From: Mustelus asterias | Lineage: Eukaryota | Direction: 5' to 3' | Assembly: GCF_964213995.1 (NCBI RefSeq) | Contig: NC_135816.1 | Location: 61,504,001-61,568,000 of the forward strand | Length of the DNA: 64,000 nt | In this document: piece by piece, positions 15,451 through 61,247 of the stretch | How the letters are laid out: every line of letters begins with the position of its first letter | Numbering within the stretch: position 1 is the stretch's first letter | The notes under the pieces: model-generated | What the model saw: only the letters and a program-made list of their open reading frames with translations | Told to the model about the DNA's origin: nothing | The model's database searches: none | Made by a program: the position numbers and the translations under genes

Positions 15451-15495
15451 CACACAAGCTTTCGGAGCTCCAAGCCCCTTCTTCAGGTGAGTGGG
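15451..15495 (-). ncRNA. Minimal type I hammerhead ribozyme motif in PLE 3' repeat
   Basis: CAC CUGAAGA A GGGGC-UUGGA-GCUCC GAAA GCU U GUG. Confidence 0.8.
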
Positions 15496-15698
15496 AATTC
15501 TGTTCACAAACAGAGCTTATAAAGACACAGACTCAATTTACATGAATAATGGTTGGAATGCGAATACTTACAACTAATCCAGTCTTTAAGAAACAAAACA
15601 ATGGGAGTGGAGAGAGCATCAAGACAGGCTAAAAAGATGTGTATTGTCTCCAGACAAGACAGCCAGTGAAATTCTGCAGGTCCACGCAACTGTGGGGG

Positions 15699-18371
15699 TT
15701 ACAAATAGTGTGACATGAACCCAATATCCCGGTTGAGGCCGTCCTTGTGTGTGCGGAACTTGGCTATCAGTTTCTGCTCAGCGACTCTGCGCTGTCGTGT
15801 GTCGCGAAGGCCGCCTTGGAGAACGCTTACCCGAATATCAGAGGCCGAATGCCCGTGACCGCTGAAGTGCTCCCCAACAGGAAGAGAACAGTCTTGCCTG
15901 GTGATTGTCGAGCGGTGTTCATTCATCCGTTGTCGCAGCGTCTGCATAGTTTCCCCAATGTACCATGCCTCGGGACATCCTTTCTTGCAGCGTATCAGGT
16001 AGACAACGTTGGCCGAGTTGCAAGAGTATGTACCGTGTACCTGGTAGATGGTGTTCTCACGTGAGATGATGGCATCTGTGTCGATGATCCGGCACGTCTT
16101 GCAGAGGTTGCTGTGGCAGGGTTGTGTGGTGTCTTGGTCACTGTTCTCCTGAAGGTTGGGTAGTTTGCTGCGGACAATGGTCTGTTTGAGGTTGTGCGGT
16201 TGTTTGAAGGCAAGAAGTGGGGGTGTGGGGATGGCCTTGGCGAGATGTTCGTCTTCATCAATGACATGTTGAAGGCTCCGGAGGAGATGCCGTAGCTTCT
16301 CCGCTCCGGGGAAGTACTGGACAACGAAGGGTACTCTGTCCACTGTGTCCCGTGTTTGTCTTCTGAGGAGGTCGGTGCGGTTTTTCGCTGTGGCGCGTTG
16401 GAACTGTTGATCAATGAGTCGAGTGCCATATCCTGTTCTTATGAGGGCATCTTTCAGCGTCTGGAGGTGTCTGTTGCGATCCTCCTCATCCGAGCAGATC
16501 CTGTGTATACGGAGGGCTTGTCCGTAGGGGATGGCTTCTTTAACGTGTTTAGGGTGGAAGCTGGAGAAGTGGAGCATCGTGAGGTTATCCGTGGGCTTGC
16601 GGTACAGTGAGGTGCTGAGGTGACCGTCCTTAATGGAGATGCGTGTGTCCAAGAATGCAACCGATTCCGGAGAGTAGTCTATGGTGAGCCTGATAGTGGG
16701 ATGGAACTTGTTGATGTCATCATAGAGTTGTTTCAGTGATTGTTCACCATGAGTCCAAAGGAAGAAAATGTCATCGATGTATCGAGTGTATAGCATCGGT
16801 TGAAGGTCCTGTGCGGTGAAGAAGTCTTGTTCGAACCTGTGCATGAAGATGTTGGCATATTGAGGTGCAAATTTGGTCCCCATGGCTGTTCCGTGTGTCT
16901 GGATGAAGAACTGGTTGTTGAAGGTGAAGATATTGTGGTCCAGGATGAAGCGGATGAGATGTAAAATTGCATCTGGAAACTGGCAGTTGTTGGCGCTGAG
17001 CACTGAGGCCGTTAAAGCAATGCCATCGTCATGGGGGATGCTGGTGTAGAGTGCCGAGACATCCATTGTGACGAGGAGCGCTCCTGGTTCAACTGCTCCA
17101 TGTGTGCCGAGTTTCTGTAGGAAGTCCGTCGTGTCGCGACAAAAGCTGGGGGTTCTTTGTACAATGGGTTTCAGGATGCCCTCGACATAGCCGGAGAGGT
17201 TCTCGCACAGGGTCCCATTGCCCGATACGATGGGACGGCCGGGTGTGTTTGCCTTGTGTATCTTCGGGAGGCAGTAGAGATCTCCAACGTGGGGAGTACG
17301 TGGGGTGAGAGCACGGAGGGTGTTCTGAAGGTCCGGATCAAAGGTCTTGATCAGAGTGTTGAGTTGACGGGTGTGTTCTTTGGTCGGATCTGCAGGTAAC
17401 TGTCTGTAGTGTTCCTCGTTGTTGAGTTGTCGGTACACTTCTTTGCAGTAATCCGTTCTGTTCAGTATGACGATGGCCCCTCCTTTGTCTGCTGGTTTGA
17501 TGACAATGTTGCGGTTGGTCTTGAGAGTGTGGATGGCGTTACGTTGTGCTTGGGTGATGTTCGGGGCTGTCTTGTGAGTGCGGCTGATGAATTTGGTGTT
17601 GACGCACCTCCTGACGGCTTGGGCATACATGTCAAGTCGAGGGCAGCGGCCTTCCGGAGGAGTCCAATTCGACTCTTTCCTCTTCGGATGCACTGCGGAT
17701 CTCTCTGTCGGCTGTTCCAGTTCATTGGCTGTCCCATTGTGTTCGTTGTTGGCCTCTTGGGGTTTGTGGAAGAACTCCCTCAGCCTCATTCGCCTGATGA
17801 ATTCCTCTGTGTCTGCTGCGAGACTGATGGGGTCTATTTTGGTGGTGGGGCAAAAATTAAGCCCTCGGCTGAGAACTTCGATTTCATCTGGTTGAAGTGT
17901 GTAGTCGGACAAGTTGACAATGGACTTCCCTGCAGTGGTACTGTTTTCTACTGTGGTACCGGGGGAGGCTTGGTTGATGCTGGTGGTGATGCCGAGTTTC
18001 TCAAGTTTCCTGTTCTTGGTGTGCATGTAGATGGTGTAGTTCCTTTGTCTCGTCTGCTTGGCAGAGTTTCGCAGCTGGTCTGCGTCCTGAGCGCAAGTTG
18101 AGAATATGGATTCGATCTTGGTTTCCAGGCTGCGGCATTTGCTGTATAGTTGGTGTATGAGGTGGTTGAGGAGGGTGAGAGAGGTGCGACGGCAAAGTCT
18201 CTCAGCGTAGTCTGTGTTATAGGTTGACCTGAGTGGGTTCGTGATCTGTAGTCCTTTCGGTTTCTTGTCTGCTTTCTTGCATCTTTGTAGAAACTTTGTG
18301 TCGATATGCGCGATCTTCTTGGCGATCCTCTCCACTTGGAGCCGGCAGTTTGCGGTGTCGATGGTAGTCAT
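15699..18371 (-). CDS. PLE polyprotein: telomerase-related RT, Cys-rich linker, C-terminal GIY-YIG endonuclease
   Basis: IKPADKG, LPKIHK...GRPIVS, DVSALYT, GTAMG, RYIDD, CHSNLCKTC linker, VVYLIRC...YIGET...R..EH, GLN. First ATG at 18371. Confidence 0.93.
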   Translation of the reverse strand: MTTIDTANCRLQVERIAKKIAHIDTKFLQRCKKADKKPKGLQITNPLRSTYNTDYAERLCRRTSLTLLNHLIHQLYSKCRSLETKIESIFSTCAQDADQLRNSAKQTRQRNYTIYMHTKNRKLEKLGITTSINQASPGTTVENSTTAGKSIVNLSDYTLQPDEIEVLSRGLNFCPTTKIDPISLAADTEEFIRRMRLREFFHKPQEANNEHNGTANELEQPTERSAVHPKRKESNWTPPEGRCPRLDMYAQAVRRCVNTKFISRTHKTAPNITQAQRNAIHTLKTNRNIVIKPADKGGAIVILNRTDYCKEVYRQLNNEEHYRQLPADPTKEHTRQLNTLIKTFDPDLQNTLRALTPRTPHVGDLYCLPKIHKANTPGRPIVSGNGTLCENLSGYVEGILKPIVQRTPSFCRDTTDFLQKLGTHGAVEPGALLVTMDVSALYTSIPHDDGIALTASVLSANNCQFPDAILHLIRFILDHNIFTFNNQFFIQTHGTAMGTKFAPQYANIFMHRFEQDFFTAQDLQPMLYTRYIDDIFFLWTHGEQSLKQLYDDINKFHPTIRLTIDYSPESVAFLDTRISIKDGHLSTSLYRKPTDNLTMLHFSSFHPKHVKEAIPYGQALRIHRICSDEEDRNRHLQTLKDALIRTGYGTRLIDQQFQRATAKNRTDLLRRQTRDTVDRVPFVVQYFPGAEKLRHLLRSLQHVIDEDEHLAKAIPTPPLLAFKQPHNLKQTIVRSKLPNLQENSDQDTTQPCHSNLCKTCRIIDTDAIISRENTIYQVHGTYSCNSANVVYLIRCKKGCPEAWYIGETMQTLRQRMNEHRSTITRQDCSLPVGEHFSGHGHSASDIRVSVLQGGLRDTRQRRVAEQKLIAKFRTHKDGLNRDIGFMSHYL

Positions 18372-18464
18372 GATGTGGAGATGCCGGTGTTGGACTGGGG
18401 TAAACACAGTAAGAAGTTTAACAACACCAGGTTAAAGTCCAACAGGTTTATTTGGTAGCAAAAG

Positions 18465-18510
18465 CCACACAAGCTTTCGAAGCTCTAAGCCCCTTCTTCA
18501 GGTGAGTGGG
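18465..18510 (-). ncRNA. Hammerhead ribozyme motif in PLE upstream repeat
   Basis: CAC CUGAAGA A GGGGC-UUAGA-GCUUC GAAA GCU U GUG. Confidence 0.78.
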
Positions 18511-19180
18511 AATTCTGTTCACAAACAGAGCTTATAAAGACACAGACTCAATTTACATGAATAATGGTTGGAATGCGAATACTTACAACTAATCCAGTCT
18601 TTAAGAAACAAAACAACGGGAGTGGAGAGAGCATCAAGACAGGCTAAAAAGATGTGTATTGTCTCCAGACAAGACAGCCAGTGAAATTCTGCAGGTCCAC
18701 GCAACTGTGGGGGTTACAAATAGTGTGACATGAACCCAATATCCCGGTTGAGGCCGTCCTTGTGTGTGCGGAACTTGGCTATCAGTTTCTGCTCAGCGAC
18801 TCTGCGCTGTCGTGTGTCGCGAAGGCCGCCTTGGAGAACGCTTACCCGAATATCAGACTATCAGAGGCCGAATGCCCGTGACCGCTGAAGTGCTCCCCAA
18901 CAGGAAGAGAACAGTCTTGCCTGGTGATTGTCAAGCGGTGTTCATTCATCCGTTGTCGCAGCGTCTGCATAGTTTCCCCAATGTACCATGCCTCGGGACA
19001 TCCTTTCTTGCAGCGTATCAGGTAGACAACGTTGGCCGAGTTGCAAGAGTATGTACCGTGTACCTGGTAGATGGTGTTCTCACGTGAGATGATGGCATCT
19101 GTGTCGATGATCCGGCACGTCTTGCAGAGGTTGCTGTGGCAGGGTTGTGTGGTGTCTTGGTCACTGTTCTCCTGAAGGCA

Positions 19181-21091
19181 ATGACCAAGCCAGTTCTCCA
19201 CCCATCTAGCCACCTCCCCCTTTATCCCATGAGATCCAACCTTTTTCACTAGCCTACCATGAGGGACTTTGTCAAACGCTTTACTAAAGTCCATATAGAC
19301 AACATCCACGGCCCTTCCTTCGTCAACCATTTTGGTCACTTCTTCAAAAAACACCACCAGGTTAGTGAGGCATGACCTCCCTCTCACAAAACCATGCTGA
19401 CTATCATTAATGAGTTTATTCCTTTCTAAATGCACATACATCCTATCTCTAAGAATCTTCTCCAACAACTTCCCCACCACGGACGTCAAGCTCACCGGCC
19501 TATAATTACCCGGGTTATCCTTCCTACCCTTCTTAAATAACGGGACCACATTAGCTATCCTCCAATCCTCTGGGACCTCACCTGCGTCCAGTGACGAGAC
19601 AAAGATTTGCGTCAGAGGCCCAACGATTTCACCTCTCGTCTCCCTGAGCAGCCTTGGATAGATTCCATCGGGCCCTGGGGATTTGTCAGTCTTTATATTC
19701 TCTAACAAACCTAACACTTCCTCCTTTGTAATGGAGATTTTCTCCAATGGTTCAACACTCCCCTCCGAGACACTCCCAGTCAACACATCCCTCTCCTTTG
19801 TGAATACCGACGCAAAGTATTCATTTAGGATCTCCCCTACTTCTTTGGGCTCCAAGCATAAGTCCCCACTTTTGTCCCTAAGAGGTCCGATTTTTTTTTC
19901 CCTAACAACCCTTTTGTTCCTAACGTATGAATAAAATGCCTTGGGATTCTCCTTAATCCTGTCTGCCAAGAACATTTCGTGACCCCTTTTTGCTCTTCTA
20001 ATTCCCCGTTTAAGTACTTTCCTACTTTCTTTGTACTCCTCCAGAGCTCCCTCCGTTTTTAGCTGCTTGGACCTAACATACGCCTCTCTTTTCTTTTTGA
20101 CCAGTCCCTCAATTTCCCTGGTTATCCACGGCTCTCTAATCCTACCCTTCCTATCCTTCTTTTTTACAGGCACATGCTTGTACTGTAGCCCTAACAACCG
20201 TTCCTTAAAAGACTGCCACATACCAGATGTGGATTTACCCTCAAACAGCCTCTCCCAATCAAGAGCTGCCAATTTCTGCCTGATCCCACTAAAGTTAGCC
20301 TTCCCCCAATCCAACACCTTACCCTTGGGACACCACTCATCCTTTTCCATCACTATCCTAAAGCTAACAGAATTGTGGTCACTATTTGCCACATGTTCCC
20401 CTACCGAAACTTTGAAGACCTGACCGGGCTCATTCCCCAGTACCAGGTCCAGTATAGCCCCCTCTCTAGACGGGCTGTCTACATATTGTTCCAACGAACC
20501 CTCCTGTACACATTTTACAAATTCCTCCCCATCCAGAGTCCCTGCCCTCAGCGATTTCCAGTTTATACCAGGGAAATTGAAGTCTCCCACTACAACAACC
20601 CTATTTTTCCTGCACCTATCCAGTATCTCCTGACATATCCATTCTTCCACTTCCCTTGGGCTGTTGGGGGGCCTGTAGTACACCCCCAACATAGTGACTG
20701 CGCCTTTCCTGTTTCTAAGCTCCACCCAGAGTGACGCGTTACACGACCCCTCTGAATTGTCCTCCCTCTGCACCGCTGTAATATGCTCTCCAACTAATAC
20801 CGCTACTCCCCCACCTCTTTTGGCCCCTCCTCTGTCTCGCCTAAAACACTTGTACCCTGGAATATTCAGCTGCCAGTCCTGTCCCTCTTTCAACCAAGAC
20901 TCTGTCACCGCAACCACATCCAAATTCCTCGTGCGCATTAAGGCCCCAAGTTCGTCTGTCTTACCTGCTACGCTCCTTGCATTGAAGTATAAGCACTCCA
21001 GACCTCCAGGCCCAGTGAGGTCGTCCTCCCCCAGAGTGCTCTTCTTCTTTGCCAGCCTTGTCCCAGCCCCAAGCTCGTCCCCAGCCTCCAC
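19181..21091 (-). CDS. CR1 ORF2 N-terminal part: APE endonuclease plus N-terminal RT
   Basis: YFNARS, VTESW, YRPP, GDFN, LDLV, SDH, KSPGPDG, NYRPVSLTS, QHGF, DFSKAFDKVPH. Confidence 0.92.
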
Positions 21092-21132
21092 ACTTGTAGA
21101 CCTAATATTTTGATCCCCAACCCCCTGCCATA

Positions 21133-21590
21133 CTAGTTTAAACCCCCACGAACTGCACTAGCAAAGCTCCCAGCCAGGATATTTGTGCCCTTCCAACTTA
21201 GTTGTGACCCCTCCCTCTTGTACAGGTGCCATCCTCTCCTGAAAACTTCCCATTGATCTATGAAAATGAAGCCCTCCCTCCTGGACCAGTCCTTTAGCCA
21301 GGCATTCATTTGTACCAACTCCCTATTCTTAGCCTCACTGGCACGAGGCATTGGGAGCAGCCCAGAGATGGCCACCCTAGTGACCCTACTTTTTAACCTA
21401 TTTCCCAACTCCCTGAATTGCTCTCTTAGGATCCCCCTACTCTTCCTATCTACGTCATTTCCACCAATGTGTATAATGACATCCGTTTCTTTATCTTCCC
21501 CTTTTAATATGCCTCCTATCCGCTCGGAGACATCCGTGACCCCAGCACCAGGTAGGCAGACTACCATCCTGGAGTCCCGTTCGCACCCAC
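21133..21590 (-). CDS. CR1 ORF1 C-terminal SGNH-esterase domain (5'-truncated)
   Basis: DSRMVVCLPGA...VIIHIGGND...SGLLP motifs typical of CR1/L2 ORF1 esterases. Confidence 0.85.
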
Positions 21591-23530: not shown

Positions 23531-23551
23531 AATGTCTATTCACAGGGGCGG

Positions 23552-28158: not shown

Positions 28159-28590
28159 CAGTAAGAAGTCTCACAACACCAGGCTAAAGTCCAACAGGTT
28201 TATTTGGTAGCACAAGCTTTCGGAGTCTCGCTCCTTCTTCAAGTGAGTCTTGTAGGAACTTGATGTCTGTGTCGATATGCGCGATCTCCTTGGAGATCCT
28301 CTCCACTTGGAACCGGCAATTTGCGATGTCGATGGTAGCCATGATGTGGAGATGCCGGCGTTGGACTGGGGTCAGCACAGTAAGAAATCTCACAACACCA
28401 GGTTAAAGTCCAGCAGGTTTATTTGGTAGCACAAGCTTTTGGAGTCTCGCTCCATTTTCAGGTGAGATTCACCTGAAGAAGGAGTGAGACTCCGAAAGTT
28501 TGTGCTACCAAATAAACCTGTCGGACTTTAATCTGGTGTTGTGAGACTTTTTACTGTGCTGACCCCAGTCCAACGCCGGCATCTCCACAT
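28159..28590. mobile_element. Miniature rearranged PLE: two minus-strand terminal repeats with an ORF N-terminal fragment plus one inverted repeat
   Basis: 13-bp TSD CTCTTACAAAGAG (28146-28158/28591-28603). Inversion centred at ~28467. Peptide MATIDIANCRFQVERISKEIAHIDTDIKFLQ. Confidence 0.88.
28470..28504 (+). ncRNA. Hammerhead motif (stem III altered)
   Basis: CAC CUGAAGA A GGAGU-GAG-ACUCC GAAA GUU U GUG. Confidence 0.6.
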
Positions 28591-29758
28591 CTCTTACAAA
28601 GAGGACAGTGACTGACTGTTATTAGAGAACTTGCAAATATGGAACTTACATTTTCTGTTTTTATTTTGAGACCATGGCAGGAGTTTACTGTGTTTCCCAG
28701 CAGGGCCAGGGAGAGAAATTGTGGGCTCTGGTGCTTCTGCTGTTTCCAGGCCCCTTATCCCCATTCCTTCCTCTAATCTCTTCAACTTCCATCTCACATC
28801 CTTTGGGCGCCCAGATTGGGGAAAATTAGCCACAGTCGGGTTGAACTGTTTCAAAAACTGTTTCAAATAAGAACAACGTATTGCCATTTTGACCTCTGTC
28901 AGCAGGACTTTCTCACCCCACCCGCCATCAGATTGGTCCAGTCTCCTTGAAAGTGAATGAACTTTTGGTTGACCCACTGCATTCCCCTGGGTAAACCCGC
29001 AACAGTGAGGCTGGAAAATCTCTTCCTATGTATCTTCTTATAAAGCCCACTTTGAGTTTTGGTTTCAGTATGATATTTGGGGCTGGGATTAGATTGTGGT
29101 TAGGTTAGAGTTACCCTCAAAAAATATTATTGATAACATTGTTCTGTTTAAGTTTAGTGTTAGGCTTGAAACCATTATTGACACATCGCTGTCACTGGAC
29201 ACTTCCTTTTATTCCCTCACACAGACCAGTCAGAAAGCAATAGTTGATTCAGGGAACTATCTTGGCACCCAATCTCAAGTTCCTCATTGCTTCCACAACT
29301 TTACACTTTCCACAAAAGGAAAACACATCGAGGACATGAGGCTTGGACACTTTGTCAGAGGTTCAGATGGATTCAGACATTCCACTGAGACATTCAGTTA
29401 TCCGGATTCCCGAAAACTTTTCTGACAATCACGTGTTCGCCAGGAGCCACCAGTCACTTTCTGTTTCCTCCTGTTGAATTCTCTATGTTTTTCCACTGTG
29501 GTTAGGGTTTTGGGTTAGTGCTTTTTCATTACTCTGCCCCACTTTTTACAACAGTTACATCTAAATGAAAAGGGTGTTTAACCACAAAACTGGGCAATAT
29601 GTGACTTTCTGCTACAGAGAGTGAAGGTTGTTGAAGGAGGGACTCAAGCAGAGAATCAAATCTCAACTTGGAAAACAGGAGCAGGCAGAAAGAGATAGAA
29701 TAAACATGAGGCTGTGATTGGATTGGAGGAATAGAAAGTGGGGGTTGTCTCCACTGTC

Positions 29759-30392
29759 AAATGTCCCGAGGCATGGTACATTGGGGAAACCATGCAGACA
29801 CTACGACAACGGATGAATGAACACCGCTCGACAATCACCAGGCAAGACTGTTCTCTTCCTGTTGGGGAGCACTTCAGCGGTCATGGGCATTCGGCCTCTG
29901 ATATTCGGGTAAGCATTCTCCAAGGCGGCCTTCGCGACACACGACAGCGCAGAGTCGCTGAGCAGAGACTGATAGCCAGGTTCCACACACATGAGGATGG
30001 CCTCAACCGGGATCTTGGGTTCATGTCACACTATCTGTAACTCCCACAACTTGTCTGGATTTGCAAAGTCTCACTGGCTGTCCTGTCTGGAGACAGTACA
30101 CATCTCTTTAACCTGTGCTAATGCTCTCTCCACTCACATTGTCTGTACCTTTAAGACTTGATTAGCTGTAAAGACTCGCATTCCAAACATTATTCATTAT
30201 TCTGTAAATTGAGTTTGTGTCTTTATAATGCCCTGTTTGCTGTTTATGAGCAGATCTTCCACTCACCTGATGAAGGAGCAGTGCTCCGAAAGCTAGTGGC
30301 GTTTGCTACCAAATAAACCTGTTGGACTTTAACCTGGTGTTGTTAGACTCCTTACTGTGTTTACCCCAGTCCAACGCCGGCATCTCCACATC
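29759..30392 (+). mobile_element. 5'-truncated Neptune-type PLE (GIY-YIG end plus terminal repeat)
   Basis: CPEAWYIGETMQTLRQRMNEHR...GLNRDLGFMSHYL. Confidence 0.9.
30259..30299 (+). ncRNA. Hammerhead ribozyme motif with canonical CUGAUGA core
   Basis: CAC CUGAUGA A GGAGC-AGU-GCUCC GAAA GCU A GUG. Confidence 0.82.
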
Positions 30393-30993
30393 TTTAAATA
30401 CTCTCCCAGTCTGGTCCCCTCGATGATGGTGCCCTGGAGCTCAGGGCCCTTCCCCTCCCAACATTGGGATGGTCTGCTTTCCTTTTTGTTTACTTTGGAC
30501 ACTGAGCATCCCCATTGACAGGCCAGTGAACCCAGTCCCCATTAGAGGCACAGGCCTCAGTGAATAGCACCCTCTGCACCCCCTCACCCAGGCCCTCTTT
30601 CCCCAGCACATGACTTTTGACCATTCGTTTCAGCCCCTGAATATCTGCCCATGGTTCAGGTTTTGGATGCACCAGTCAGGATTCAGGTGATCAATGTTCC
30701 CTCAGGAATGTACCACATAGCAAAGCAAAATCACAGGAATATCAGAGGTGGTCCTAAACTTCCATCACCAGATGTGTCACACTAGAGCCACATCAATCCT
30801 GAAAATATATTACTTTATAGAATCATAGAATCCCTACATCTAGGAGAGGCCATTCGGCCCACCAAGTCTGCACTGACTCTCTGACAGAGTATCTTACCCA
30901 GGCCCTCTCGTCCTATCCTCGTTATCCCACGCATTTACCATGGCTGATTCATCTAACCTACACATTTGGGACTCTAAGGGGCAACTTAACATA

Positions 30994-32382
30994 ATGTGGA
31001 GATGCCGGCGTTGGACTGGGGTAAACACAGTAAGAAGTTTAACAACACCAGGTTAAAGTCCAACAGGTTTATTTGGTAGCAAAAGCCACACAAGCTTTTG
31101 CAGCTCTAAGCCCCTTCTTCAGGTGAGTGGGAATTCTGTTCACAAACAGAGCTTATAAAGACACAGACTCAATTTACATGAATAATGGTTGGAATGCGAA
31201 TACTTACAACTAATCAAGTCTTTAAGAAACAAAACAATGTGAGTGGAGAGAGCATCAAGACAGGCTAAAAAGATGTGTATTGTCTCCAGACAAGACAGCC
31301 AGTGAAACTCTGCAGGTCCACGCAACTGTGGGAGTTACAAATAGTGTGACATGAACCCAATATCCCGGTTGAGGCCGTCCTCGTGTGTGCGGAACTTGGC
31401 TATCAGTTTCTGCTCAGCGACTCTGCGTTGTCGTGTGTCGCAAAGGCCGCCTTGGAGAACGCTTACCCGAATATCAGAGGCCGAATGCCCGTGACCGCTG
31501 AAGTGCTCTCCAACAGGAAGAGAACAGTCTTGCCTGGTGATTGTCGAGCGGTGTTCATTCATCCGTTGTCGCAGCGTCTGCATAGTTTCCCCAATGTACC
31601 ATGCCTCGGGACATCCTTTCTTGCAGCGTATCAGGTAGACAACGTTGGCCGAATTGCAAGAGTATGTACCGTGTACCTGGTGGATGGTGTTCTCATCTGA
31701 TGCCATCATCTCACGTGAGAACACCATCCACCAGGTACACGGTACATACTCTTGCAATTCGGCCAACGTTGTCTACCTGATACGCTGCAAGAAAGGATGT
31801 CCCGAGGCATGGTACATTGGGGAAACTATGCAGACGCTGCGACAACGGATGAATGAACACCGCTCGACAATCACCAGGCAAGACTGTTCTCTTCCTGTTG
31901 GGGAGCACTTCAGCGGTCACGGGCATTCGGCCTCTGATATTCGGGTAAGCGTTCTCCAAGGCGGCCTTTGCGACACACGACAACGCAGAGTCGCTGAGCA
32001 GAAACTGATAGCCAAGTTCCGCACACACGAGGACGGCCTCAACCGGGATATTGGGTTCATGTCACACTATTTGTAACTCCCACAGTTGCGTGGACCTGCA
32101 GAGTTTCACTGGCTGTCTTGTCTGGAGACAATACACATCTTTTTAGCCTGCCTTGATGCTCTCTCCACTCACATTGTTTTGTTTCTTAAAGACTTGATTA
32201 GTTGTAAGTATTCGCATTCCAACCATTATTCATGTAAATTGAGTCTGTGTCTTTATAAGCTCTGTTTGTGAACAGAATTCCCACTCACCTGAAGAAGGGG
32301 CTTAGAGCTCCGAAAGCTTGTGTTGCTTTTGCTACCAAATAAACCTGTTGGACTTTAACCTGGTGTTGTTAAACTTCTTACC
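30994..32382. mobile_element. Fold-back (head-to-head) PLE insertion forming a ~1.39-kb near-perfect palindrome
   Basis: 12-bp TSD CAACTTAACATA (30982-30993/32383-32394). Arms 31030-31695 and 31716-32381 are reverse complements. Confidence 0.93.
32281..32322 (+). ncRNA. Hammerhead ribozyme motif (right palindrome arm, intact)
   Basis: CAC CUGAAGA A GGGGC-UUAGA-GCUCC GAAA GCU U GUG. Confidence 0.8.
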
Positions 32383-34495: not shown

Positions 34496-35480
34496 TGTAG
34501 TTGGGCATTAGCCCTTTTAAGAGAACAGGTCTGGTAACCCAGGGCACAAGCTCCACCCTGGGTGGAGCTTGCTAGGTCATCCTTGTGCTACTGACATGAC
34601 GTTGAATAAATAGTTCCTCTTAGTTTACACTTAGTTAGCTCGTGGTCTCTCATTAGTCCAATATTAGAGCTCATATTTAACAACTGGCAACAAAGCTGAG
34701 TCACAGCCCACTGCGTGTTTCCGCTGGGTTTGTGGAAGAAAGGAGGAAGATCAGACATCACCCAGATTCCAATAAAAAGGTACACAGCAGGCATCGGGCT
34801 TCAGGCGGTAGTCGTGAGGGGTCTAGGGCATCAGTCGACGGCCAGAATAGGAGAGGGATTCTCAACTGGGCGCACCAAGATCATCGGTCACGAGGGGACT
34901 CGGGTTGCATTCGACACGAGTTGTAGGAGACCACCATTGGTGAGGGAATGGCTGGCGCAAAGAGTGTGAAACAAGTAGACTCGGGCTGCAAGCGGCTACT
35001 GAACACGAATGGCGGGGAAACCACCCGGCAGCGGGAACAGAAAATGGCGGGCCAATTCAGAGCGATGGGACCATTTAATGAAGAAACAGAGAGCTGGGCG
35101 CTGTGTACTGAGTATTTTCATTTATACTTAAAAGCTAACAAGGTGGACAAAAACCTCATGGCAGCGGTCATTCTCAGCACGATAGGGAGTAAGACGTTCA
35201 TGACGCAAAGAAGTCTTATACAGCCGGGAAAGTCCACGGAGAAACCCTTAGTGGAGTTGTGCGAGGGGCTAGCGAATCATTTCACTCAAAAACCACTCAT
35301 GATAGCGGAACATTTTCGATTTTACAAAAGAGCACAGCTGGAAGGAGAGTTCATTGTTCAATTTGTGGCTGTGTTAAAAAGAAAGTGTGAATTTGGCAGT
35401 TTCCTGCAAGATGTCTTACGGAACCGTTTATTTTGTGGCCTCCGAAATGAAGCAATCCAACAAAAACTTCGAACAATAAA
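34496..35480 (+). mobile_element. Truncated Gypsy (Mag-like) element: 5' LTR ~34496-34682, PBS-like TGG, decayed gag
   Basis: TGT...AACA LTR with AATAAA, then ACTGGCAAC. gag GPFNEETESW...PKPL-like MIAEHFRFYKRAQ...CEFG...LRNRLFCGL. Confidence 0.75.
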
Positions 35481-36887
35481 AGTCTTCAGGCATGATTTTA
35501 CGACTTTGTCATTCGGTGAGGTGAGGTGAGGTGATAAGATAGGGTGGGAGGTGAAAAAAGAGAAGCGCGCCCGGTTTCTAACCCCCCTCTGCCACCCTGA
35601 CAAGATATTATCACAGGTGACAATGGAAAGATGACAAATATTAAGGAATGATTTTGCTCTGCTTTTCACCAGTGATATGGAACAGATCGACATGACATTG
35701 AAAATGCAATAATATTTTTAAAAGATGTATAAACTAAATAAAAGGAAAGAGGAAAAAGAGACCACAAACTAAACGGCCCCGTAATACATCTTGCAGGAAA
35801 CTGCCAAATTCACACTGTCTTTTTAGCACAAACACAAATTGAGCAATGGACCCTCCTTCCAGATGTGCTCTTCTGTAAAATCAAAAATGTTCCGCTGTCA
35901 TGAGTGGTTTTTGAGTGAAAAGATTCCCCAGCCCCTCGCACAACTCCGCTAAGGGTTTCTCCGTGGACTTTTCAGGCTGTATAAGACTTCTTCATGTCAT
36001 GAATGTCTGTTCTGGTCTGAACAGAGTTCATTCATGTATTACGAATGAGTATATGGACGAGATAGCAGAAGCATTACAACTCATATTTAATCATTTGTTA
36101 GAAAAGGTGTAGTGAAGGAGGATTGGCAGATAACTAATGCAATTCCTTTATTTAAGAAGGAGGGGTGGGTGGGAAAGTGACCAGGGAACTATAGACAAAT
36201 CAGCTTAACACCATTGAAAGGAAAAATAATGCAATCCTTATAAAAGGTGAGTATAAAAGAAAATCTAGAAATGAGAAATATAGTAATGAATTGTTAGCAT
36301 GGATTTCAAAGGGGAAAATTTAGTCTGACCAAACCTACAGAATTTTTTGAGGAGGGAAGAGAGAGGGTAGACAATGTAGTTTATGTAATTTATCTGGATT
36401 TTCAAAAGACCTTCAATAACACGTCCAATTATAGATTTAACAGATAGAATCAGATAATGTGGAGTCAGATGACAAGATATAGAACCAATTGCTAGCTAGC
36501 TTCTAAACAGAAACCAGAGAATGGAAAATCGGGTTATTATTCAGAGTTGCAGAAGATGAAAGTGATATTCCTCAAGGATCAGAGCTGGAACCCTGGTTCA
36601 CAATATACATTAACAATTAGGATTCAGGAATCAAAAACATTCCTAATCTTTCGAATAGTCCATACTAAGGACTGCAACAAATTACAGGAGGACATTCATA
36701 AACTTGTAGAATAGGCAGGTGAAGTTCAACACAGTTAAATGTGAAGAATACATTTTGGTAGAAGGAATAGGGAGATCACTTATTACTTGGTAGCTGCAAG
36801 TCCAGATGGGTCAGAGGAACAAAGGAATCTCGGAGAACAAATACATCAATCATTGAAAATTCCACCACAAGCGAGCAAGGTCACAAG

Positions 36888-44272: not shown

Positions 44273-44472
44273 NNNNNNNNNNNNNNNNNNNNNNNNNNNN
44301 NNNNNNNNNNNNNNNNNNNNNNNNNNNNNNNNNNNNNNNNNNNNNNNNNNNNNNNNNNNNNNNNNNNNNNNNNNNNNNNNNNNNNNNNNNNNNNNNNNNN
44401 NNNNNNNNNNNNNNNNNNNNNNNNNNNNNNNNNNNNNNNNNNNNNNNNNNNNNNNNNNNNNNNNNNNNNNNN
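44273..44472. other. Assembly gap (200 N)
   Basis: Run of N. Confidence 1.
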
Positions 44473-47400: not shown

Positions 47401-48989
47401 GGAAATGCCTGCTTCAAAGTGGGGGGAGGCGGGGGAGGGGGGGGGAAGATTCATCCATCGTGTTGAAAAATAAATAATATCTGTGCAGAAGAAATTTTTG
47501 GCTGTGTTTGTTTCCAATTCTGTGCACATACTGTTCTAGTGTTTACTCCCTTACATCATTGCAAGTGACAGTGTAAGCAGTGGCCTAATCTGTACAGGCT
47601 TACATGTATATTTGTAACTGTGGAAGAACATTTTGTAAAAGGGAAAAAGAAACATTGGAGCCCTAGTCACTGCTATCTTTTCTTGGAGACACTAAAAAAA
47701 AAGACTTTGAAAAAAATTAATTTTAGAAACACTGAAACATTTGTGTGGATTTTGAGTAACGTTAGTCAGAGATTTAGAACTGGTGTGAAGCAACAAAAAA
47801 ATAGCTTTGGCTTTAACTGGTGCTGCACTTTAATTTATGGGACTGTCAGCAGAAAGCAATCTGGTACACTTTAGGTTTAATGTGATGTATAAGATGGTAG
47901 AATGACTCTGCCACGGGAAATAATGCCTTAGGACAGTATCAGAGCGCAATGGAGTCGAGTCATTGCATTTCTGGGCATCCTCTGACCAATGCACATCTTA
48001 TCAAAATAAAAATCTTATCAAAATATTTTGAGGATCAGGGAAGATTACTCGATGGCGAAACTTACATTTCCATCGACACAGGAGCACAGTGATTGCAATG
48101 AAGCAGATTAAAACTGAAAACACGAAAGGTCAACAGAATTGAAGAAATCAAGTTGCTAACTAGCACCCCTGATACCTGAAATAGAATCAGAGAACAAGGA
48201 ACTTCCTTTGCAAAATGAAAACCAATGTAAATTTAAGAATGTTATCTAAAAAATGGAACAAAGTGATATCCATTAAACATTACTTGGGCATGTGATCACC
48301 AAGATCCAGAGTTTTGTATCAATCATCAGAGCAAGTTAAAGATATTTGGGTCTATACCAAGTACCTCTCATGATACAATCATCTAAAATTAAGGATGCTG
48401 TACCACCCCTGCTTTATTTCTATGTAAATCAGATTTCTCTGATCACAATCTGATCTGTTTCCAAAACATTACAACCAGATTTTCAATAAATCCACCTCTG
48501 AAAGATTAGGGCAGAACTTACACCCTGACTATATCCCAGTTTTCTGGGTCGGGGGTTATTAAATATACAAAGAGTGTTCACAGTGTGGTGAACCATAGAT
48601 GGTTACCCCTATGGGTACTGAATGATGCGCGTCAATAAGCACATGGAATCAAGGCTTCGGTATTGAAGGCTTTAATAAAGTAACAAGGGAACTACTAACA
48701 CGAATACACCAGTTCAGACTGAAGGGGTCCTGCCGGAGCAGGGGGTCTTATACCCTGCCACCGGAGGCGGGACCCCACTGGAATGTGCCACGATAACTCT
48801 CATAACAGGTAAACACCCTAACCCAACAACATAGTACAACCCCCACAGTAATAACACCCTAGCCCAACAGTAACATGGTAACAAACCCCAGTGGTGAACC
48901 AACGATGGTTCACCACATTCACCCCTCCTTTAAGAACAAAAGGTGGCGGGGTGGACGAAAAACAGACAATAACAGAAAAGTCACAGGAT

Positions 48990-51900
48990 TCACAAGTCCA
49001 GACGGTCTGGAGGACCGCACCGACGCTGCGATCTCCTCAACACCGGTTGCGAAACCGGAGCAGGTGCCGATCTCTTCAACACCGGTTGCGAAAACGGAGC
49101 AGGTGCTTGTGGTGGCGCTCTTAAAGTAACGTCTGGCTGTCCCCTCAAGGACTCCCGGGCCGGCCGGCCCTGGTGAGGCGATGGTGCAGGGGATCCTGGA
49201 ACGTTTGGTGGTAGTGGTGGTGGTGATGATGATGGTGGCGCCGATCTCCGAGTCTCAGGCAAGCTGTACATGGGAGTAAAAGTGTTATGCACTGGTCCCG
49301 GTGCTGACCGCGCCACGTCTGGGGAAGTAATGAGGAGTAGTGGATTTGTGACTGGGGGAATAGGAGCGACAGGGGTTGCTACGTCCCCTGCGGGCGCCAG
49401 GTCTCTAATGGAGACAGTGTCCTCTCGCCCGTCAGGATATGCCACATAGGCATACTGAGGGTTGGCGTGGAGGAGTTGGACCGGTTCGACCAAGGGGTCG
49501 GACTTGCGAGCCCTCACATGGCGCCGCAGAAGGACGGGTCCTGGGTACGTCAACCAGGCTGGCAATGAGGTCCCCGAGGACGACTTCCGAGGGAATGAGA
49601 ACATCCTCTCGTGGGGAGTAGCATTGGTTGCCGTACACAGGAGGGAGCGGATAGCATGGAGCGCATTTGGAAGGACCTCCTGCCAACGGGAGACTGGAAG
49701 GCCCCTGGATTTCAGTGCCAGTAGGACAGCCTTCCAGACTGTAGCATTCTCCCTTTCCACCTGTCCGTTACCCCTAGGGTTGTAGCTCGTGGTTCTACTA
49801 GAGGCAATCCCGAATGAGAGCAGGAATTGCCTCAAGTCGTTGTTCATGAACGACGAGCCCCTGTCGCTATGAATATAGCAGGGGTACCCGAACAGGGTAA
49901 AAAGTTCACTGAAAACCTTGATGACGGTGGCAGTTGACGTGTCCGCACAGGGGAAAACAAACAGAAACCGGGAATACTCGTCTATTATATTGAGAAAATA
50001 GACATTCCGGTCCGTTGAGGGAAGGGGGCCCTTAAAATCCACACTCAGCCTCTCAAAAGGGCGAGTGGCCTTGACCAATTGTGCCCGGTCTGGTCGATAA
50101 AAGTGTGGTTTGCATTCTGCGCAAATCCGACAGCTTCTAGTTACTGACCTGACATCCTCCACCGAGTAGGGCAGGTTGCGGGCTTTGGTGAAGTGGTAGA
50201 GTCTGGTGACTCCAGGATGACACAGATCATTGTGGAGAGCCTTCAAGCGGTCCTCCTGCATGATGGCGCATGTTCCGCGCGAGAGGGCATCCGAGGGCTC
50301 ATTGAGCTTCCCTGGACGATACATAATATCGTAATTATAGGTGGAGAGCTCAATTCTCCACCGCAAGATCTTATCGTTCTTGATCTTGCCCCTCTGCGTG
50401 TTACTGAACATAAACGCCACGGATCGTTGATCCGTGATCAGGGTGAACCGCTTACCTGCCAGGTAATGGCGCCAGTGTCTGACTGCCTCCACAATGGCCT
50501 GAGCCTCCTTTTCCACCGCTGAGTGCCGAATTTCTGGGCCTTGAAGGGTGCGGGAAAAAAACGCGACGGGCCTGCCTGCCTGGTTTAGTGTGGCGGCTAG
50601 GGCGAAGTCAGATGCATCACTCTCCACCTGGAAAGGGATGGATTCATCCACCGCGTGCATCGTGGCTTTCGAGATGTCGCTCTTCAAAACCTTGAAGGTC
50701 AATTGGGCCTCCGGCGTAAGTGGGAAGGTCGTGGACTTAATGAGCGGACGAGCTTTGTCCGCGTAGTTGGGGACCCACTGTGCATAATATGAAAAGAACC
50801 CGAGGCATCTCCTCAGTGCCTTCGTGCTAGCGGGCAAGGGAAGTTCAGTGAGTGGGCGCATACGGTCTGGATCAGGGCCAATGACCCCGTTTTCCACCAT
50901 GTATCCGAGGATGGCTAACCTACGCGTACGGAATACGCACTTCTCCCTGTTATAGGTCAGATTCAGGCGAGATGCAGTGCGCAGAAAGTGTTGGAGATTC
51001 GTGTCGTGGTCCTGCTGGTCATGGCCACAGATGGTGACGTTATCCAGGTACGGGAAGGTAGCCCGCAACCCGTTCTGGTCCACCATTCGGTCCATAGCAC
51101 GCTGGAAGACCGAGACCCCATTGGTGACACCAAATGGAACCCTGAGGAATTGGTATAGACGACCATCCGCCTCAAAAGCCGTATATTGTCGGTCCTCTGG
51201 GCGGATGGGGAGTTGATGGTAGGCGGACTTAAGGTCTATGGTAGAAAACACTCGGTACTGCGCAATCTGATTGACCATATCAGAAATGCGCGGGAGAGGA
51301 TACGCATCCAGCTGCGTGTATCTATTAATGGTCTGACTATAGTCGATGACCATCCGAGGTTTGTTCCCGCTTTTGACTACCACGACCTGCGCTCTCCACG
51401 GACTAGCACTGGCCTGTATGATCCCTTCCTTGAGGAGCCGCTGAACCTCAGATCTAATAAAGATCCGGTCCTCAGTGCTGTAACGCCTACTTTTAGTAGC
51501 GATGGGCTTGCAGCCAGGTACCAGATTTTTAAAAAGGGATGGTGTCGTGATCTTCAGGGTGGATAAATTGCACGCGGGGCGCTTTGGGCAATTTGGAGGC
51601 TGCGGCTGATTCCCTACTGCCAGTGAAGGGAGTGGCCCACCGTACTGTAGGATCACACTCTTCATGTGGACCATAAAGTTTAGTCCGAGGAGAATTGGCG
51701 CGCAAAGGTGAGGTAGCACAAGGAGCCTGAATTGCTCGTAAACTGTGCCCTGTACCTCAAGAGTTACCATACATCGTCCTTGGATCGATACAGACCGGGA
51801 CTGTGATGCCATGGAAATTGTCTGTTTGGCAGGGAGAACCCGGAGTCCACACCTTTTAGCAGTTTCAGGGTGTATGAAACTTTCGGTGCTCCCACTGTCA

Positions 51901-52170
51901 AACAGACAATTCACAGTTCTGCCACTAACCTTTACCTCCATCATAGAATGTTCCAGTCTGTAATGCCTGGTCTGATCCAGAGAGATCGACGCCACCGTTG
52001 GCCCCTGGGCGTCACTGCATGCTGCCGATGTGGATGCTGAGGACCCCTGCTGGTCGCTGCTGCATGCTGCCGATGTGGATGCTGAGGACCCCTGCTGGTC
52101 GCTCCTAGTCGTCGTGGACCATGATGGCCGCCCCCATGAATCGCACGTGGGCGAGGGCGCCAACGCAGCG
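48990..52170 (-). CDS. Gypsy Pol (protease, RT, RNase H, integrase)
   Basis: LFDSGS, YLDN, ESDAS, HPG...C..C, VDFKGP, HSDRG, GNGQVER. Confidence 0.93.
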
Positions 52171-53068
52171 ACTCCTGGTGGTCTTCCTCCTCCTCTGTCT
52201 GCCACGATGGCGCCGTCCTGAGATCGCACGTGGTCGGACCTCGTGGGTACTGCGACGCCAAAAGAGATGGTCTCCGTTCTGGAGGGTTACAAGCTGCACT
52301 GTCGTTTTTAGGTTTGGACCTGCAGACTTTGCCGTAGTGGCCTTTTTTACCGCACTGGCTGCAGATTGCCGTTCTTGCCGGACACTGTTGCCGTGGATGC
52401 TTGGCCCCACCGCAAAAATAGCATCGCTGGCCACCTGGAGCTGCCGCCGTCGTCGAATCGATCTGGGAGCGCGGGTTCGCGGGGCGAGGAGGGAGCAGAG
52501 CTTGCTCCAACCACGTTGACTGCACGTGGTCCTCGGGGTACAGCGCCAAGCTCTTCGACGCCGCCTCCAACCTCACGGCCATCCCCATTGCCTGGGTCAA
52601 GTTGAGTTTCCCCTTTTCTAGCAATTTAAGCCTGATGTACGAGGACCCTACCCCTGCTACGAACGCGTCTCGGGCGAGGTCGTACATATACTGCTCGGCG
52701 GAGACGTCCTTACAGTCGCAACCCCTGGCAAGCTGCAGGAGCTCATTGGCATAATCCTCTATGGTTTCGCCCGACTGCCGACGTCGTGTAGCGAGGAGGT
52801 AACGAGCATGTATCTCGTTGGGTGGCATAATGTACCTATTCTTTAGGAGCTCGACGGCACCCTGGTAAGTGGGAGCTGCACGAATGGCTAGGTAAATCGT
52901 GTCGCTTACCCTCGCGTGGAGGACCTGGAGTCTATCACTGTCCATAGTGATAGCTACCGAGGCTGCCAGGTAGTCCTCAAAGCACTTCCACCAATGGTCG
53001 AATGTGTTAGCTGCACCGACCGCACGTGGGTCCAGTGTCAGACGATCCGGTTTTAGGATCTGTTCCAT
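51941..53068 (-). CDS. Gypsy Gag with two CCHC zinc knuckles
   Basis: CYFCGGAKHPRQQC and CSQCGKKGHYGKVC. Confidence 0.9.
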   Translation of the reverse strand: MEQILKPDRLTLDPRAVGAANTFDHWWKCFEDYLAASVAITMDSDRLQVLHARVSDTIYLAIRAAPTYQGAVELLKNRYIMPPNEIHARYLLATRRRQSGETIEDYANELLQLARGCDCKDVSAEQYMYDLARDAFVAGVGSSYIRLKLLEKGKLNLTQAMGMAVRLEAASKSLALYPEDHVQSTWLEQALLPPRPANPRSQIDSTTAAAPGGQRCYFCGGAKHPRQQCPARTAICSQCGKKGHYGKVCRSKPKNDSAACNPPERRPSLLASQYPRGPTTCDLRTAPSWQTEEEEDHQESLRWRPRPRAIHGGGHHGPRRLGATSRGPQHPHRQHAAATSRGPQHPHRQHAVTPRGQRWRRSLWIRPGITDWNIL

Positions 53069-53720
53069 ACTCTCTGTTTTTTCCTTCTTGTTGCACAGTT
53101 GTGAGTTTTCTGTTTACTTTATTAAATTGATGCGCGTCAATAAGCACATGGAATCAAGGCTTCGGTATTGAAGGCTTTAATAAAGTAACAAGGGAACTAC
53201 TAACACAAATACACCAGTTCAGACTGAAGGGGTCCTGCCAGAGCAGGGGGTCTTATACCCTGCCACCGGAGACGGGACCCCACTGGAATGTGCCACGATA
53301 ACTCTCATAACAGGTAAACACCCTAACCCAACAACATAGTACAACCCCCACAGTAATAACACCCTAGCCCAACAGTAACATGGTAACAAACCCCAGTGGT
53401 GAACCAACGATGGTTCACCACACTGAACCATGGATGGTTATCACTATGGGTACTTGTACATATGTTACTCTGCTTGCTGTTGGGGTTAGGGTTGGGGTGT
53501 TCTACCTGTTGGTATTGTTCTGTGGTACACTCCAGTTGGCTCCGCCTTCCTATAGGGGTATAAAGGTCACTGCACTTCCTAGTGACCCTTTAGTCTAGGA
53601 TTGTATGGTTAAGCAGTATGCTCTATTCTTGTTGCTAATACAAGCCTTTATTTCCCGAGTACGATCGAGCATCTCGAGTGAATTAATCGCGCATCACACA
53701 GTCACATCCATAGCAGCAGC

Positions 53721-57069: not shown

Positions 57070-57350
57070 GCAGTGTATCCCAGGGATCCTCACACCTCAG
57101 ATCCTCTTACAGAGGGGACTGGACCCGAAACAATCCAGATAAAGACAGTAATAATTCAGTGCAGTGGCAGAGAAAGTGTACAGAGAATGAACAAACAGGC
57201 AAAGAGCACAATTATCAGCCAGATTGTATCAATTACTCGCTGGCACGTATGATACAATGCAAGAAAATTATTGTTTTTCCAGAAACTTACCTAAAAAACA
57301 ATAATTGTACAGTCAAATAAGCCACAACACAAGCAATTGCTCTGGACACC
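57070..57350 (-). pseudogene. TIM-family fragment C (degenerate leader plus first ~50 nt of IgV exon)
   Basis: Copy of the A/B intron-exon junction with acceptor CAG>CGG, in-frame CGA>TGA stop and truncation. Leader-like exon with GTAAG donor but no ATG. Confidence 0.75.
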
Positions 57351-58331: not shown

Positions 58332-58672
58332 GGGCAGCACGGTGACACAGTGGTTAGCACTGCTGCCTCATAGCTCCAGGGACCTGAGTTCGATTCCTGA
58401 CTTGGGTCACTGTCTGTGTGGAGTTTGCACATTCTCCCTGTGTCTGCGGGGGTTTCCTCCGGGTGCTCCGGTTTCCTCCCACAGTCCAAAGATGTGCAGG
58501 TTAGGTTGATTGGCCATGCTAAATTGCCCCTTAGTGTCCTGGGGTGTGTATGTTGGAGGGAATAGCAGGGTAAATATGTGGGATTTTGGGGATAGGGCCT
58601 GGGTGGGATTGTTGTTGGTGCAGACTTGATGGGCCAAATGGCCTTCTTCTGCACTGTAGGGTTTCTATGATT
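58332..58672 (+). mobile_element. HE1/V-SINE-type SINE
   Basis: Head/core/tail intact. Confidence 0.88.
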
Positions 58673-59997
58673 CCTAAAATGAATGATCTTGGATCCCTTA
58701 CGGAAAGAAGAATCTGATTCACTGTTTAGCAACTCCAGAGATTCCAATCCCTAAGAGGGTACCTTAATTATTCAACAACAACTCAGACACAAGAACCTGG
58801 GAGGATGTAGATGGGGAGAGTATATATCTTAGCATGAAATCCACAGCACCAGTAAACAGGAAGACTTGGGGTGGAATCGTCATAGAATCACAGAATAGCA
58901 CAGCGCAGAAGGAAGCCATTCAGCCCACTGTTCTAGCTCCTTTTCTAATACTTTTGTGAAATCTGTGGTTTGAATTTCTTTCTAGGACTTGAACACAAAA
59001 ATTTAAGTTGACACTCCTGTGAAGTATATTGAAACTTTTGTATGAATCTGCGTTCCTTCATGCTCCCCACATTTTTTCAAAAACTTTGGCCATCTATAGA
59101 GGCGGGATGTTGGAGCAAACAATTTTGCCGCCATTTCCTTTTTGATCACGGCCTCTGTTCAGACCTGTTTCAGGCAACAAAAATCCAGCCCGTATTCTCT
59201 GATTCTTCTAAATTCCAATGTGTATAGGTCCAGCCTGCTCCACCTTTCCTCATTAGGCATGGCTTCTATTAAAAGCTTTTCAATTAATGTCATGTGAATT
59301 AGTTAATTAGTAACAATTACCAACAGGTAGTGATGGTTTGATGCTCAACCTCTTGAATTCAGACCTCCTCCTGCAGGTACAGTGCCCCAAGAGGGTGACC
59401 ATAGATCTCCATTGGATTGGTACATGATTATGCTTGGCAAAGTACTGCAGTGTTATGTCATTCCCTTCAGCAGTAAAGCTGACCAGTGTTAAGAAATAGA
59501 TATAGTGTCAAGTAATTTACATTTAATTTTGTGGATACTAGGAATAAAATATAACTTTCAGTAGGACTTTTTGTTTTCATATTTGTGTTAGGAAAGGGTT
59601 ATAAACTTCAGTTTATTTTCAATTTAAACTTTGTCTGCATTGTATTGAGGCTTTATGACAATAAATTAAAAACTGGGCTGTTGCCTAGCAATCAAGGACC
59701 TACACAGGAAAACAGAAACAGTTTGAATTCAGTTAGAAGAAGGTAACCCAGAAGCAAGGAGCTTTTCACAGAAACTGCTGGAATAGGGACATGAAGTGAG
59801 AAAACCCAAAACTAAAGAACAGAAAAGCCTAAGAAATCAGGGAACAGGACAGAAGAGAGTTCCAGGAAGACAGTAAAAGGATTAATAATCACACAAGTTT
59901 AAAGATCAAAAAGCTGCAAGCTGCTCAACTGAGAAAACACAGTAAGAATTTTAACAACACCAGGTTAAAGTCCAACAGGTTTAATTGGTAGCAAATG

Positions 59998-60034
59998 CCA
60001 CTAGCTTTCAGAGCGCTGCTCCTTCGTCAGATGG
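59998..60034 (-). ncRNA. Hammerhead ribozyme motif
   Basis: CCAU CUGACGA A GGAGC-AGC-GCUCU GAAA GCU A GUGG. Confidence 0.75.
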
Positions 60035-61210
60035 AGTGGAAATGTGCTCTCAAACAGGGCACAGAGACACAAAATCAAGTTACAGAATACTGATTAGAAT
60101 GCAAATCGCTACAGCCAACCAGGTCTTAAAGATACAGACAATGCGAGTGGAGGGAGCATTAAGCACAGGTTAAAGAGATGTGTATTGTCTCCAGCCAGGA
60201 CAGCCAGTGAGATTCTGCAAGTCCAGGAGGCAAGCTGTGGGGGTTACTGATAATGTGACATAAATCCAACATCCCGGTTTAGGCCGTCCTCATGCGTGCG
60301 GAACTTGGCTATCAGTTTCTGCTCAGCGACTCTGCGCTGTCGTGTGTCATGAAGGCTGCCTTGGAGAACGCTTACCTGAAGATCAGAGGCTGAATGCCCG
60401 TGACTGCTGAAGTGCTCCCCCACAGGAAGAGAACAGTCTTGCCTGATGATTGTCGAGCGGTGTTCATTCATCCGTTGTCGTAGCGTCTGCATGGTTTCCC
60501 AATGTACCATGCCACAGGACATCCTTTCCTGCAGCGTATCAGGTAGACAATGTTGGCCAAGTTGCAAGAGTAGGTACCGTGTACCTGGTAGATGGTGTTC
60601 TCACGTGAGATGATGGCATCCATGTCGATGATCCGGCATGTCTTGCAGAGGTTGCTGTGGCAGGGTTGTGTGGTGTCGTGGTCACTGTTCTCCTGAAGGC
60701 TGGGTAGTTTGCTGCGGACAATGGTCTGTTTGAGGTTGTGCGGTCGTTTGAAGGCAAGAAGTGGGGGTGTGGGGATGGCCTTGGCGAGATGTTCGTCTTC
60801 ATCAATGACATGTTGAAGGCTCCGGAGGAGATGCCGTAGCTTCTCCGCTCCGGGGAAGTACTGGATGACGAAGGGTACTCTGTCCACCGTGTCCCGTGTT
60901 TGTCTTCTGAGGAGGTCGGTGCGGTTTTTCGCTGTGGCGCGTCGGAACTGTCGATCGATGAGTCGAGCGCCATATCCTGTTCTTATGAGGGCATCTTTCA
61001 GCGTCTGGAGGTGTCTGTTGCAATCCTCCTCATCCGAGCAGATCCTGTCTGGAGACAATACACATCTCTTTAACCTGTGCTTAATGCTCCCTCCAGTCAC
61101 ATTGTCTGTATCTTTAAGACCTGGTTGGTTGTAGAGATTCGCATTCTAATCAGTATTCTGTAACTTGATTTTGTGTCTCTGTATGCCCTGTTTGAGAGCA
61201 GATATCCACT

Positions 61211-61247
61211 CCATCTGACGAAGGAGCAGCACTCCGAAAGCTAATGG
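61211..61247 (+). ncRNA. Hammerhead ribozyme motif with compensatory stem I
   Basis: CCAU CUGACGA A GGAG-CAGCA-CUCC GAAA GCU A AUGG. Confidence 0.8.

Follow-up and report, generated by a model that had tools for sequence, protein, structure and literature searches.

We analyzed a 64,000-nt window of the genome of the shark Mustelus asterias (RefSeq assembly GCF_964213995.1, contig NC_135816.1, positions 61,504,001 to 61,568,000 of the forward strand; hereafter "the window"). It contains a Penelope-like element (PLE) with an uninterrupted open reading frame (ORF) between two repeats, each carrying a small hammerhead ribozyme motif. Young and present in very many copies, the element belongs to the PLEs with a C-terminal endonuclease and has a zinc linker of the Neptune type; the 5' boundaries of its genomic copies peak at the predicted ribozyme cut. 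The reading that we favor, at a probability of roughly 60%, is that a minority of its RNAs is cleaved with the assistance of protein, and that full elements are copied from a template with an intact ribozyme, most simply a re-ligated circle.

The PLE at the locus

The single ORF places a reverse transcriptase (RT; RVT_1 in Pfam, 1e-9) before a C-terminal GIY-YIG-type endonuclease (EN) with two cysteines between its motifs, the arrangement of EN+ PLEs. Pfam returned no GIY-YIG match for this ORF; the VVY-C-x3-C-YIG signature was seen in the alignment. The linker before the endonuclease, CHSNLCKTC, fits the Neptune pattern CX2-5CxxC, a trait common to Nematis. The C-terminal EN, the linker and the cysteines between GIY and YIG are those described for Neptune and Nematis EN+ PLEs, as is the partial tandem with an inverted truncated copy and an optional tail that we find here (Craig et al., 2021, PMC8557442). 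By the sequence criteria described there, the element is classed as Neptune- or Nematis-type. The Neptune-type element named in an initial annotation of this DNA is borne out by the zinc linker; the same criteria also fit Nematis. The closest named relatives of the ORF protein are shark proteins, at 81-94% identity.

The partial tandem sits in a long interspersed nuclear element (LINE), flanked by an 8-bp duplication, TTGGTCAT. The LINE, which we take to be CR1-type, encodes an AP-endonuclease and RT in long open frames and is split by the insertion. Independent PLE insertions (that in the window, L227, L209, L259 and L270) have entered the host LINE at or beside one and the same GGCTTGGTCATAGAA-like sequence, which suggests a target hot spot.

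Table 1. Features of the window (HHR, hammerhead ribozyme; min-HHR, minimal HHR).
Feature	Position	Strand	Basis
Decayed min-HHR, 4 nt deleted immediately before the cut	12855..12891	-	
LINE, first part	14411-15385	-	
Target-site duplication TTGGTCAT, 3' side, in LINE	15386..15393	-	
3' repeat of the partial tandem, comprising the endonuclease end, the 3' UTR and the ribozyme; no tail at its end	15393..16155	-	
Intact min-HHR of the 3' repeat, predicted cut after 15456	15452..15490	-	descriptor and sequence check
890-codon PLE ORF: RT, C-x4-CxxC linker, C-terminal GIY-YIG-type endonuclease VVY...C-x3-C...YIG	15699..18371	-	
Optional "tail" between the two 3'-end positions; second end at the ATG	18369..18407	-	copy ends and PMC11167929
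5' repeat, a second copy truncated at its 5' end; 98.3% identity with the 3' repeat and two private alleles in common with it	18408..19178	-	
Intact min-HHR of the 5' repeat, predicted cut after 18471	18467..18505	-	descriptor and sequence check
TATAAG to CCACTC, 29 nt apart; putative promoter, with RNA predicted to start some 6 nt ahead of the core	18507..18536	-	boundary cluster
Target-site duplication TTGGTCAT, 5' side	19181..19188	-	
LINE, second part	19189-21157	-	
Decayed min-HHR, C3U	28210..28246	-	
Decayed min-HHR, core and G12 changed, other arm of fold-back stub 28343-28591	28429..28465	-	
min-HHR with AGUU for AGCU, arm of fold-back stub 28343-28591	28469..28505	+	
Intact min-HHR, CUA, stem I UCAC/GUGG	30263..30299	+	
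Decayed min-HHR, G12A and stem II mismatch, other arm of inverted pair 30990-32381	31088..31126	-	
Intact min-HHR, one arm of inverted pair 30990-32381	32285..32323	+	
LTR retrotransposon, 98% identical repeats	48623-53427	-	
min-HHR with C11.1U, inverted partner of the 61211 copy	59998..60034	-	
Intact min-HHR, stem I CCAU/AUGG subfamily	61211..61247	+	

Hammerhead motifs in the window and the genome

All 11 PLE repeats that the initial annotation had listed as carrying the motif, intact or decayed, were found in place and on the expected strands, and an independent probe for the part of the repeat downstream of the motif recovered exactly the same 11 in the window. Five retain an intact core, GC and both stems; two others carry a single wobble-type change and four are broken. 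A strict hammerhead descriptor gave six matches in the window, versus none in 50 first-order Markov resamples. These copies derive from several separate insertions and at least four subfamilies, and so are not the repeats of one element, as had been supposed. The motif does lie close to AATAAA, with a spacing from the cut of 9-18 nt in place of a constant 15 nt or so, and the stem II described as always GGRG/CUCC in intact copies is GGGG/CUUC, not CUCC, in the copy 5' of the intact ORF. There is one ribozyme in each ORF-flanking repeat of the window element.

The Rfam scan of the window found no hammerhead at E<=10, probably because helix III is missing. A mir-3179 match at 28424-28510 was rejected as the fold-back stub. 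This stub belongs to a compound structure (28159-28591) in which both arms of the fold-back start 4-5 nt before the core, and one arm reaches 87 nt into the ORF and then joins a copy starting at the presumed transcription start.

We then sampled 120 unselected 10-kb stretches from the 23 largest contigs. They hold 112 repeat ends, which extrapolates to about 3.4x10^5 genome-wide (bootstrap 2.6-4.3x10^5). Only 44 of the 112 have a full core, the remainder being 5'-truncated or decayed. Thirty-seven pass the descriptor, or about 1.1x10^5 copies by extrapolation. Both repeats are present in 36 of the 40 sequences that match the ORF start best, and in 29 of those 36 elements the ORF is open. In the youngest subfamily (L185, L190, L191 and 17 others; unit 3,095-3,097 nt), the 3' UTR is about 76 nt longer and stem II is GGGGCU/AGCCUC; the repeats are often 100% identical, which indicates very recent activity.

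The motif is almost certainly the published min-HHR of PLEs, which has the consensus CUGANGAH-G..C-GAAAN-palindrome-NUH and was also reported in fish Neptune elements (Cervera and De la Pena, 2014, PMC4209133). With hammerhead numbering as in the cited papers, G10.1-C11.1, a helix II of at least 4 bp and a short helix I occur together in 37 of the 44 full cores. GC is present in 43/44, and the same number have AGCU, the palindromic 15.1-16.1 without loop 3, which bears out the reduction of stem III to a palindrome. The core CUGANGA...GAAA is followed by U16.1 and H17 (U in 24, A in 15, C in 5 and G in none), and all four bases occur at position 7. The minimal type I hammerhead named in the initial annotation is thus confirmed for the PLE pseudo-LTRs. 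The two features that it called atypical are typical of the class: the extra nucleotide between A9 and G10.1 (A in 44/44) is given as conserved in PLE min-HHRs, and U or A at position 17, as in the CUU and CUA triplets, is common in the alignment of PMC4209133, which also shows AAUAAA close to the motif. Once inserted, old copies lose the C11.1-G12 CpG in either direction (15 T and 9 A among 82 copies), yet it is kept in every subfamily, which we read as a sign of selection in the source lineages.

Covariation was assessed on 73 of the 82 parsed copies (63 distinct), nine truncated, gapped or mis-parsed rows having been dropped. In these, 91% of stem cells pair (93% in helix II and 88% in helix I), and the covariation score of 0.256 was reached by none of 500 shuffles (shuffled score 0.200). 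The paired changes claimed earlier are real in three stem pairs: C-G to U-A at stem I pair 1, U-A/U-G/C-G at stem I pair 4 (unpaired in the youngest subfamily), and A-U to G-U to G-C at stem II pair 3. They amount to only about three events, at the level of lineages.

Duplex folding predicts, in most subfamilies, an interrupted extension of helix I that covers AAUAAA. The AATAAA is probably not a poly(A) signal, since copies extend well beyond it and folding pairs it with a GUUUG located upstream. A switch that would favor the hammerhead fold at the RNA start was considered and rejected (14/26).

Where copies begin and end

Across the whole genome, we counted exact copies preceded by two unexpected bases. 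In the GTGTGG subfamily, for which a single 32-mer occurs 48,373 times, 1,527 5' boundaries fall at the cut, versus 415 at +1, 402 at +2 and 159 at +4; upstream positions gave 340 (-1, narrower filter) and 379 (-4, pooled). Corrected for filter width, there are 2,715 at the cut versus 283-907, or 3-6% of the subfamily. The ATGG subfamily has 347 at the cut (narrower filter) versus 249 and 190, and 925 versus 443 and 338 once corrected. The first 20 cut-site places of the GTGTGG set are all true boundaries, mostly of short fold-back stubs, and their interpretation as small deletions in intact copies was rejected (0/20). None of 16 partner arms extends past the cut by more than 4 nt, compared with 8/9 in a control made of the first 20 places of the +4 set (Fisher p=8e-6). 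That both cDNAs of one insertion stop at the cut suggests that the RNA had its 5' end there. A first count of 5' ends, blurred by inverted partners, had shown no cluster there, and in a corrected test on the 112 sampled copies, a sample too small for this purpose, five start at 0 or +1.

A second cluster lies upstream. Of 26 boundaries within the 45 nt before the core, 18 fall 4-9 nt before it, 29 nt after TATAAG, a TATA-like box. This cluster likely marks the transcription start, so that RNA would begin about 6 nt before the core. A check for cap-derived G gave 9 G, 5 T and 0 A at the upstream cluster, where partner arms provide part of the template, and 10/20 at the cut, where such a G is not evident. 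One raw-read RNA run had no reads on the window stretch; three contig sets cover it, although contigs cannot show RNA ends or expression.

The peak at the cut might have another cause. The hammerhead could be retained by descent and cut rarely or never, with read-through of uncleaved tandem arrays as template and the peak being a second transcription start or an RT stop at the folded motif. Near-two-unit tandems do occur (L198, L199, L200), the U-G step at the cut presumably suits a pyrimidine-purine start, and the predicted hammerhead folding is weak. In the anole PLE, moreover, the main substrate is uncut RNA, and mutating the hammerhead leaves insertion in vitro normal (Frangieh et al., 2024, PMC11167929). 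However, a pause does not predict that the partner arms, too, stop at or before the cut, as they would if the RNA itself ended there, and the TATA-like box indicates a start about 36 nt upstream, at the separate cluster. The NUH rule and the CpG are kept across subfamilies, and private alleles in both repeats (below) require that one stretch was copied twice at some step. We consider this explanation unlikely.

On the 3' side, the ends of 78 of the 112 sampled copies cluster in two peaks. These lie 12-16 and 48-53 nt downstream of the probe, or 62-66 and 98-103 nt past the cut with the spacing of the youngest subfamily. None of 52 copies found from the upstream side ends at the cut; all 52 run through, a result that the rarely cutting hammerhead would also predict. 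These ends bear on the proposal of the initial annotation, a unit-length RNA cut out by the two copies that flank the ORF, if that RNA is taken as linear and as reverse-transcribed from the 3' end that cutting creates. The window element has both of these copies intact, and such a role was proposed in PMC4209133. But with copies ending 62-103 nt past the cut and 52/52 running through it, copying does not start from the 3' end of a linear cut-to-cut RNA. In addition, 34 of the 36 full elements reach upstream beyond the 5' ribozyme, spanning both copies. The linear version is contradicted and has very little probability left. For a cut-to-cut RNA to be used, it would have to be re-ligated first, or the RT would have to make a precise template jump; with either addition the proposal becomes the best explanation. 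There is no indel at the cut in 36 3' repeats and 34 5' repeats, so most templates carry the ribozyme intact.

The template of full elements

The two repeats of an element resemble each other more than they resemble those of other elements, with 0.66% versus 1.72% differences in the older group and 0.17% versus 0.37% in the younger. Private alleles occur in both repeats of one element 14 times versus 0.3 permuted (16 elements), and once versus 0.03 (20 elements). One source stretch was therefore copied twice. The ligated circle proposed in PMC4209133 is the simplest account of the matching repeats, although we put this at a little below even odds. In L188, L195 and L217, the 5' and 3' repeats have different common ribozyme-loop haplotypes, and in L188 and L217 upstream private alleles are still common to both repeats, which suggests template switching or conversion near the ribozyme.

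Cleavage could also act as a brake or translation switch, removing the capped first 36 nt or so of the RNA, with cut RNAs ending as dead stubs that have no role as templates. The presumed RNA start does lie just before the core, all 20 inspected cut-site copies are short stubs, and none of 40 copies containing the ORF start begins exactly at the cut (the nearest, L208, begins 3 nt upstream). Alone, this does not account for 5' repeats of 50-2,953 nt that match the 3' repeat and have private alleles in common with it, and we regard it as improbable.

In the reading that we prefer, cleavage and templating are combined. The hammerhead would quite probably cut a minority of the RNAs in vivo after GCUH, and cutting probably needs protein help and a second copy that pairs through AGCU. 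Lunse et al. are said to have described dimer cleavage in 2017. The anole PLE hammerhead cleaves only with its protein (PMC11167929). Reverse transcription would start internally near the ATG and go back through the ribozyme. At a cut 5' end it would fall off, leaving short fold-back stubs (about 3-6% of the youngest subfamily); on a circle it would traverse the joint and the ORF and then cross the joint a second time, which would produce partial tandems whose repeats match.

Several observations weigh against this reading. The ATGG peak is only 2-3-fold and is inflated by palindromic junctions counted twice; in that subfamily 3/20 partners cross the cut and 1/20 is an intact copy. Two event-level measures of covariation do not beat shuffles (63/500 and 61/500), which limits the claim of covarying stems, and CpG decay may account for part of the variation at positions 7 and 17. 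The predicted hammerhead fold lies about 5.4 kcal/mol above the ensemble, and the active dimer is at -16.1 versus a cofold minimum of -26.2. By these models the hammerhead would not be the ground state in context, in line with low in vitro activity and with the protein-assisted anole ribozyme. Young tandem arrays, or a precise jump within one RNA, would also account for the shared alleles, and eight discordant shared alleles in other elements indicate some mixing of sources. Published cases add to this: Naiad PLEs thrive without hammerheads (PMC8557442), eight of nine Xenopus retrozyme dimers failed to cleave, and in the anole element no RNA-seq reads began or ended at the cut (PMC11167929), whereas the shark genomic boundaries peak there.

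Relation to known elements and significance

The closest parallels are in published PLEs. The min-HHRs of PMC4209133 share the consensus, the extra nucleotide after A9 and G10.1-C11.1, and likewise have no loop 3, a palindromic 15.1-16.1, one motif per repeat and many dispersed truncated copies. The turtle (Chrysemys) row has nearly the same form, GCAU-CUGAAGAA-stem II-GAAA-GCU-U-AUGC followed by CCAAAUAAA; the searched part of the supplement has no shark row. The same source gives about 4,000 copies for coelacanth and 9,000 for Xenopus, versus the 1.1x10^5 extrapolated here by a different method. Copies of the anole (Anolis) Poseidon element PAc likewise end at two points downstream of the hammerhead, separated by about 37 nt (the tail), and the element has an internal RT start and mostly uncut templates (PMC11167929). 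It differs in that the shark ribozyme is entirely within the UTR, some 100 nt upstream of the ATG, and the shark protein has the zinc linker. Non-LTR retrozymes share type I hammerheads and proposed circular RNA templates, and occur in a chondrichthyan (PMC7761336; bioRxiv 10.64898/2026.07.22.740005). They are, however, non-coding tandem repeats, and the shark case is an autonomous element with stubs; its copies are element ends and inverted stubs, not non-coding head-to-tail repeats of 150-1000 nt. At the level of titles and counts, we found no literature on shark PLE hammerheads, cut-site boundaries or shared repeat alleles, although subscription papers and preprint supplements may cover sharks.

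Other features of the window include an LTR retrotransposon with two open frames, one gag-like and the other encoding protease-RT-RNase H-integrase, and no room for an envelope frame after pol. A short interspersed element (SINE) with a tRNA-like head has at least nine copies (families D1, D2 and D5) at 2411, 3251, 7536, 9481, 23859, 27335, 36889, 53722 and 58333. Inverted repeats of 251 nt (35192-36008) and 152 nt (38361-39635) are unrelated to the PLE ends, and 44273-44472 is a run of 200 N.

The role of the PLE hammerhead in vivo has been called a mystery (PMC7761336) and still unclear (PMC8557442), and the single biochemical study showed that insertion in vitro can do without it. The class of motif is already known, and the value added here is in two genomic footprints, the boundary peak at the cut and the private alleles shared between repeats. 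Should more than 1,000 insertions in one subfamily come from ribozyme-cut RNA and full elements from circles, this autonomous vertebrate retrotransposon would be a rolling-circle, viroid-like replicator, a conclusion that we hold as tentative and somewhat less likely than its opposite. In a family this young, with 29 of 36 sampled full elements open and tens of thousands of exact copies, copy boundaries can be read as RNA ends. The two footprints turn the question of PLE hammerhead function, and of rolling-circle copying, into one that is directly testable.

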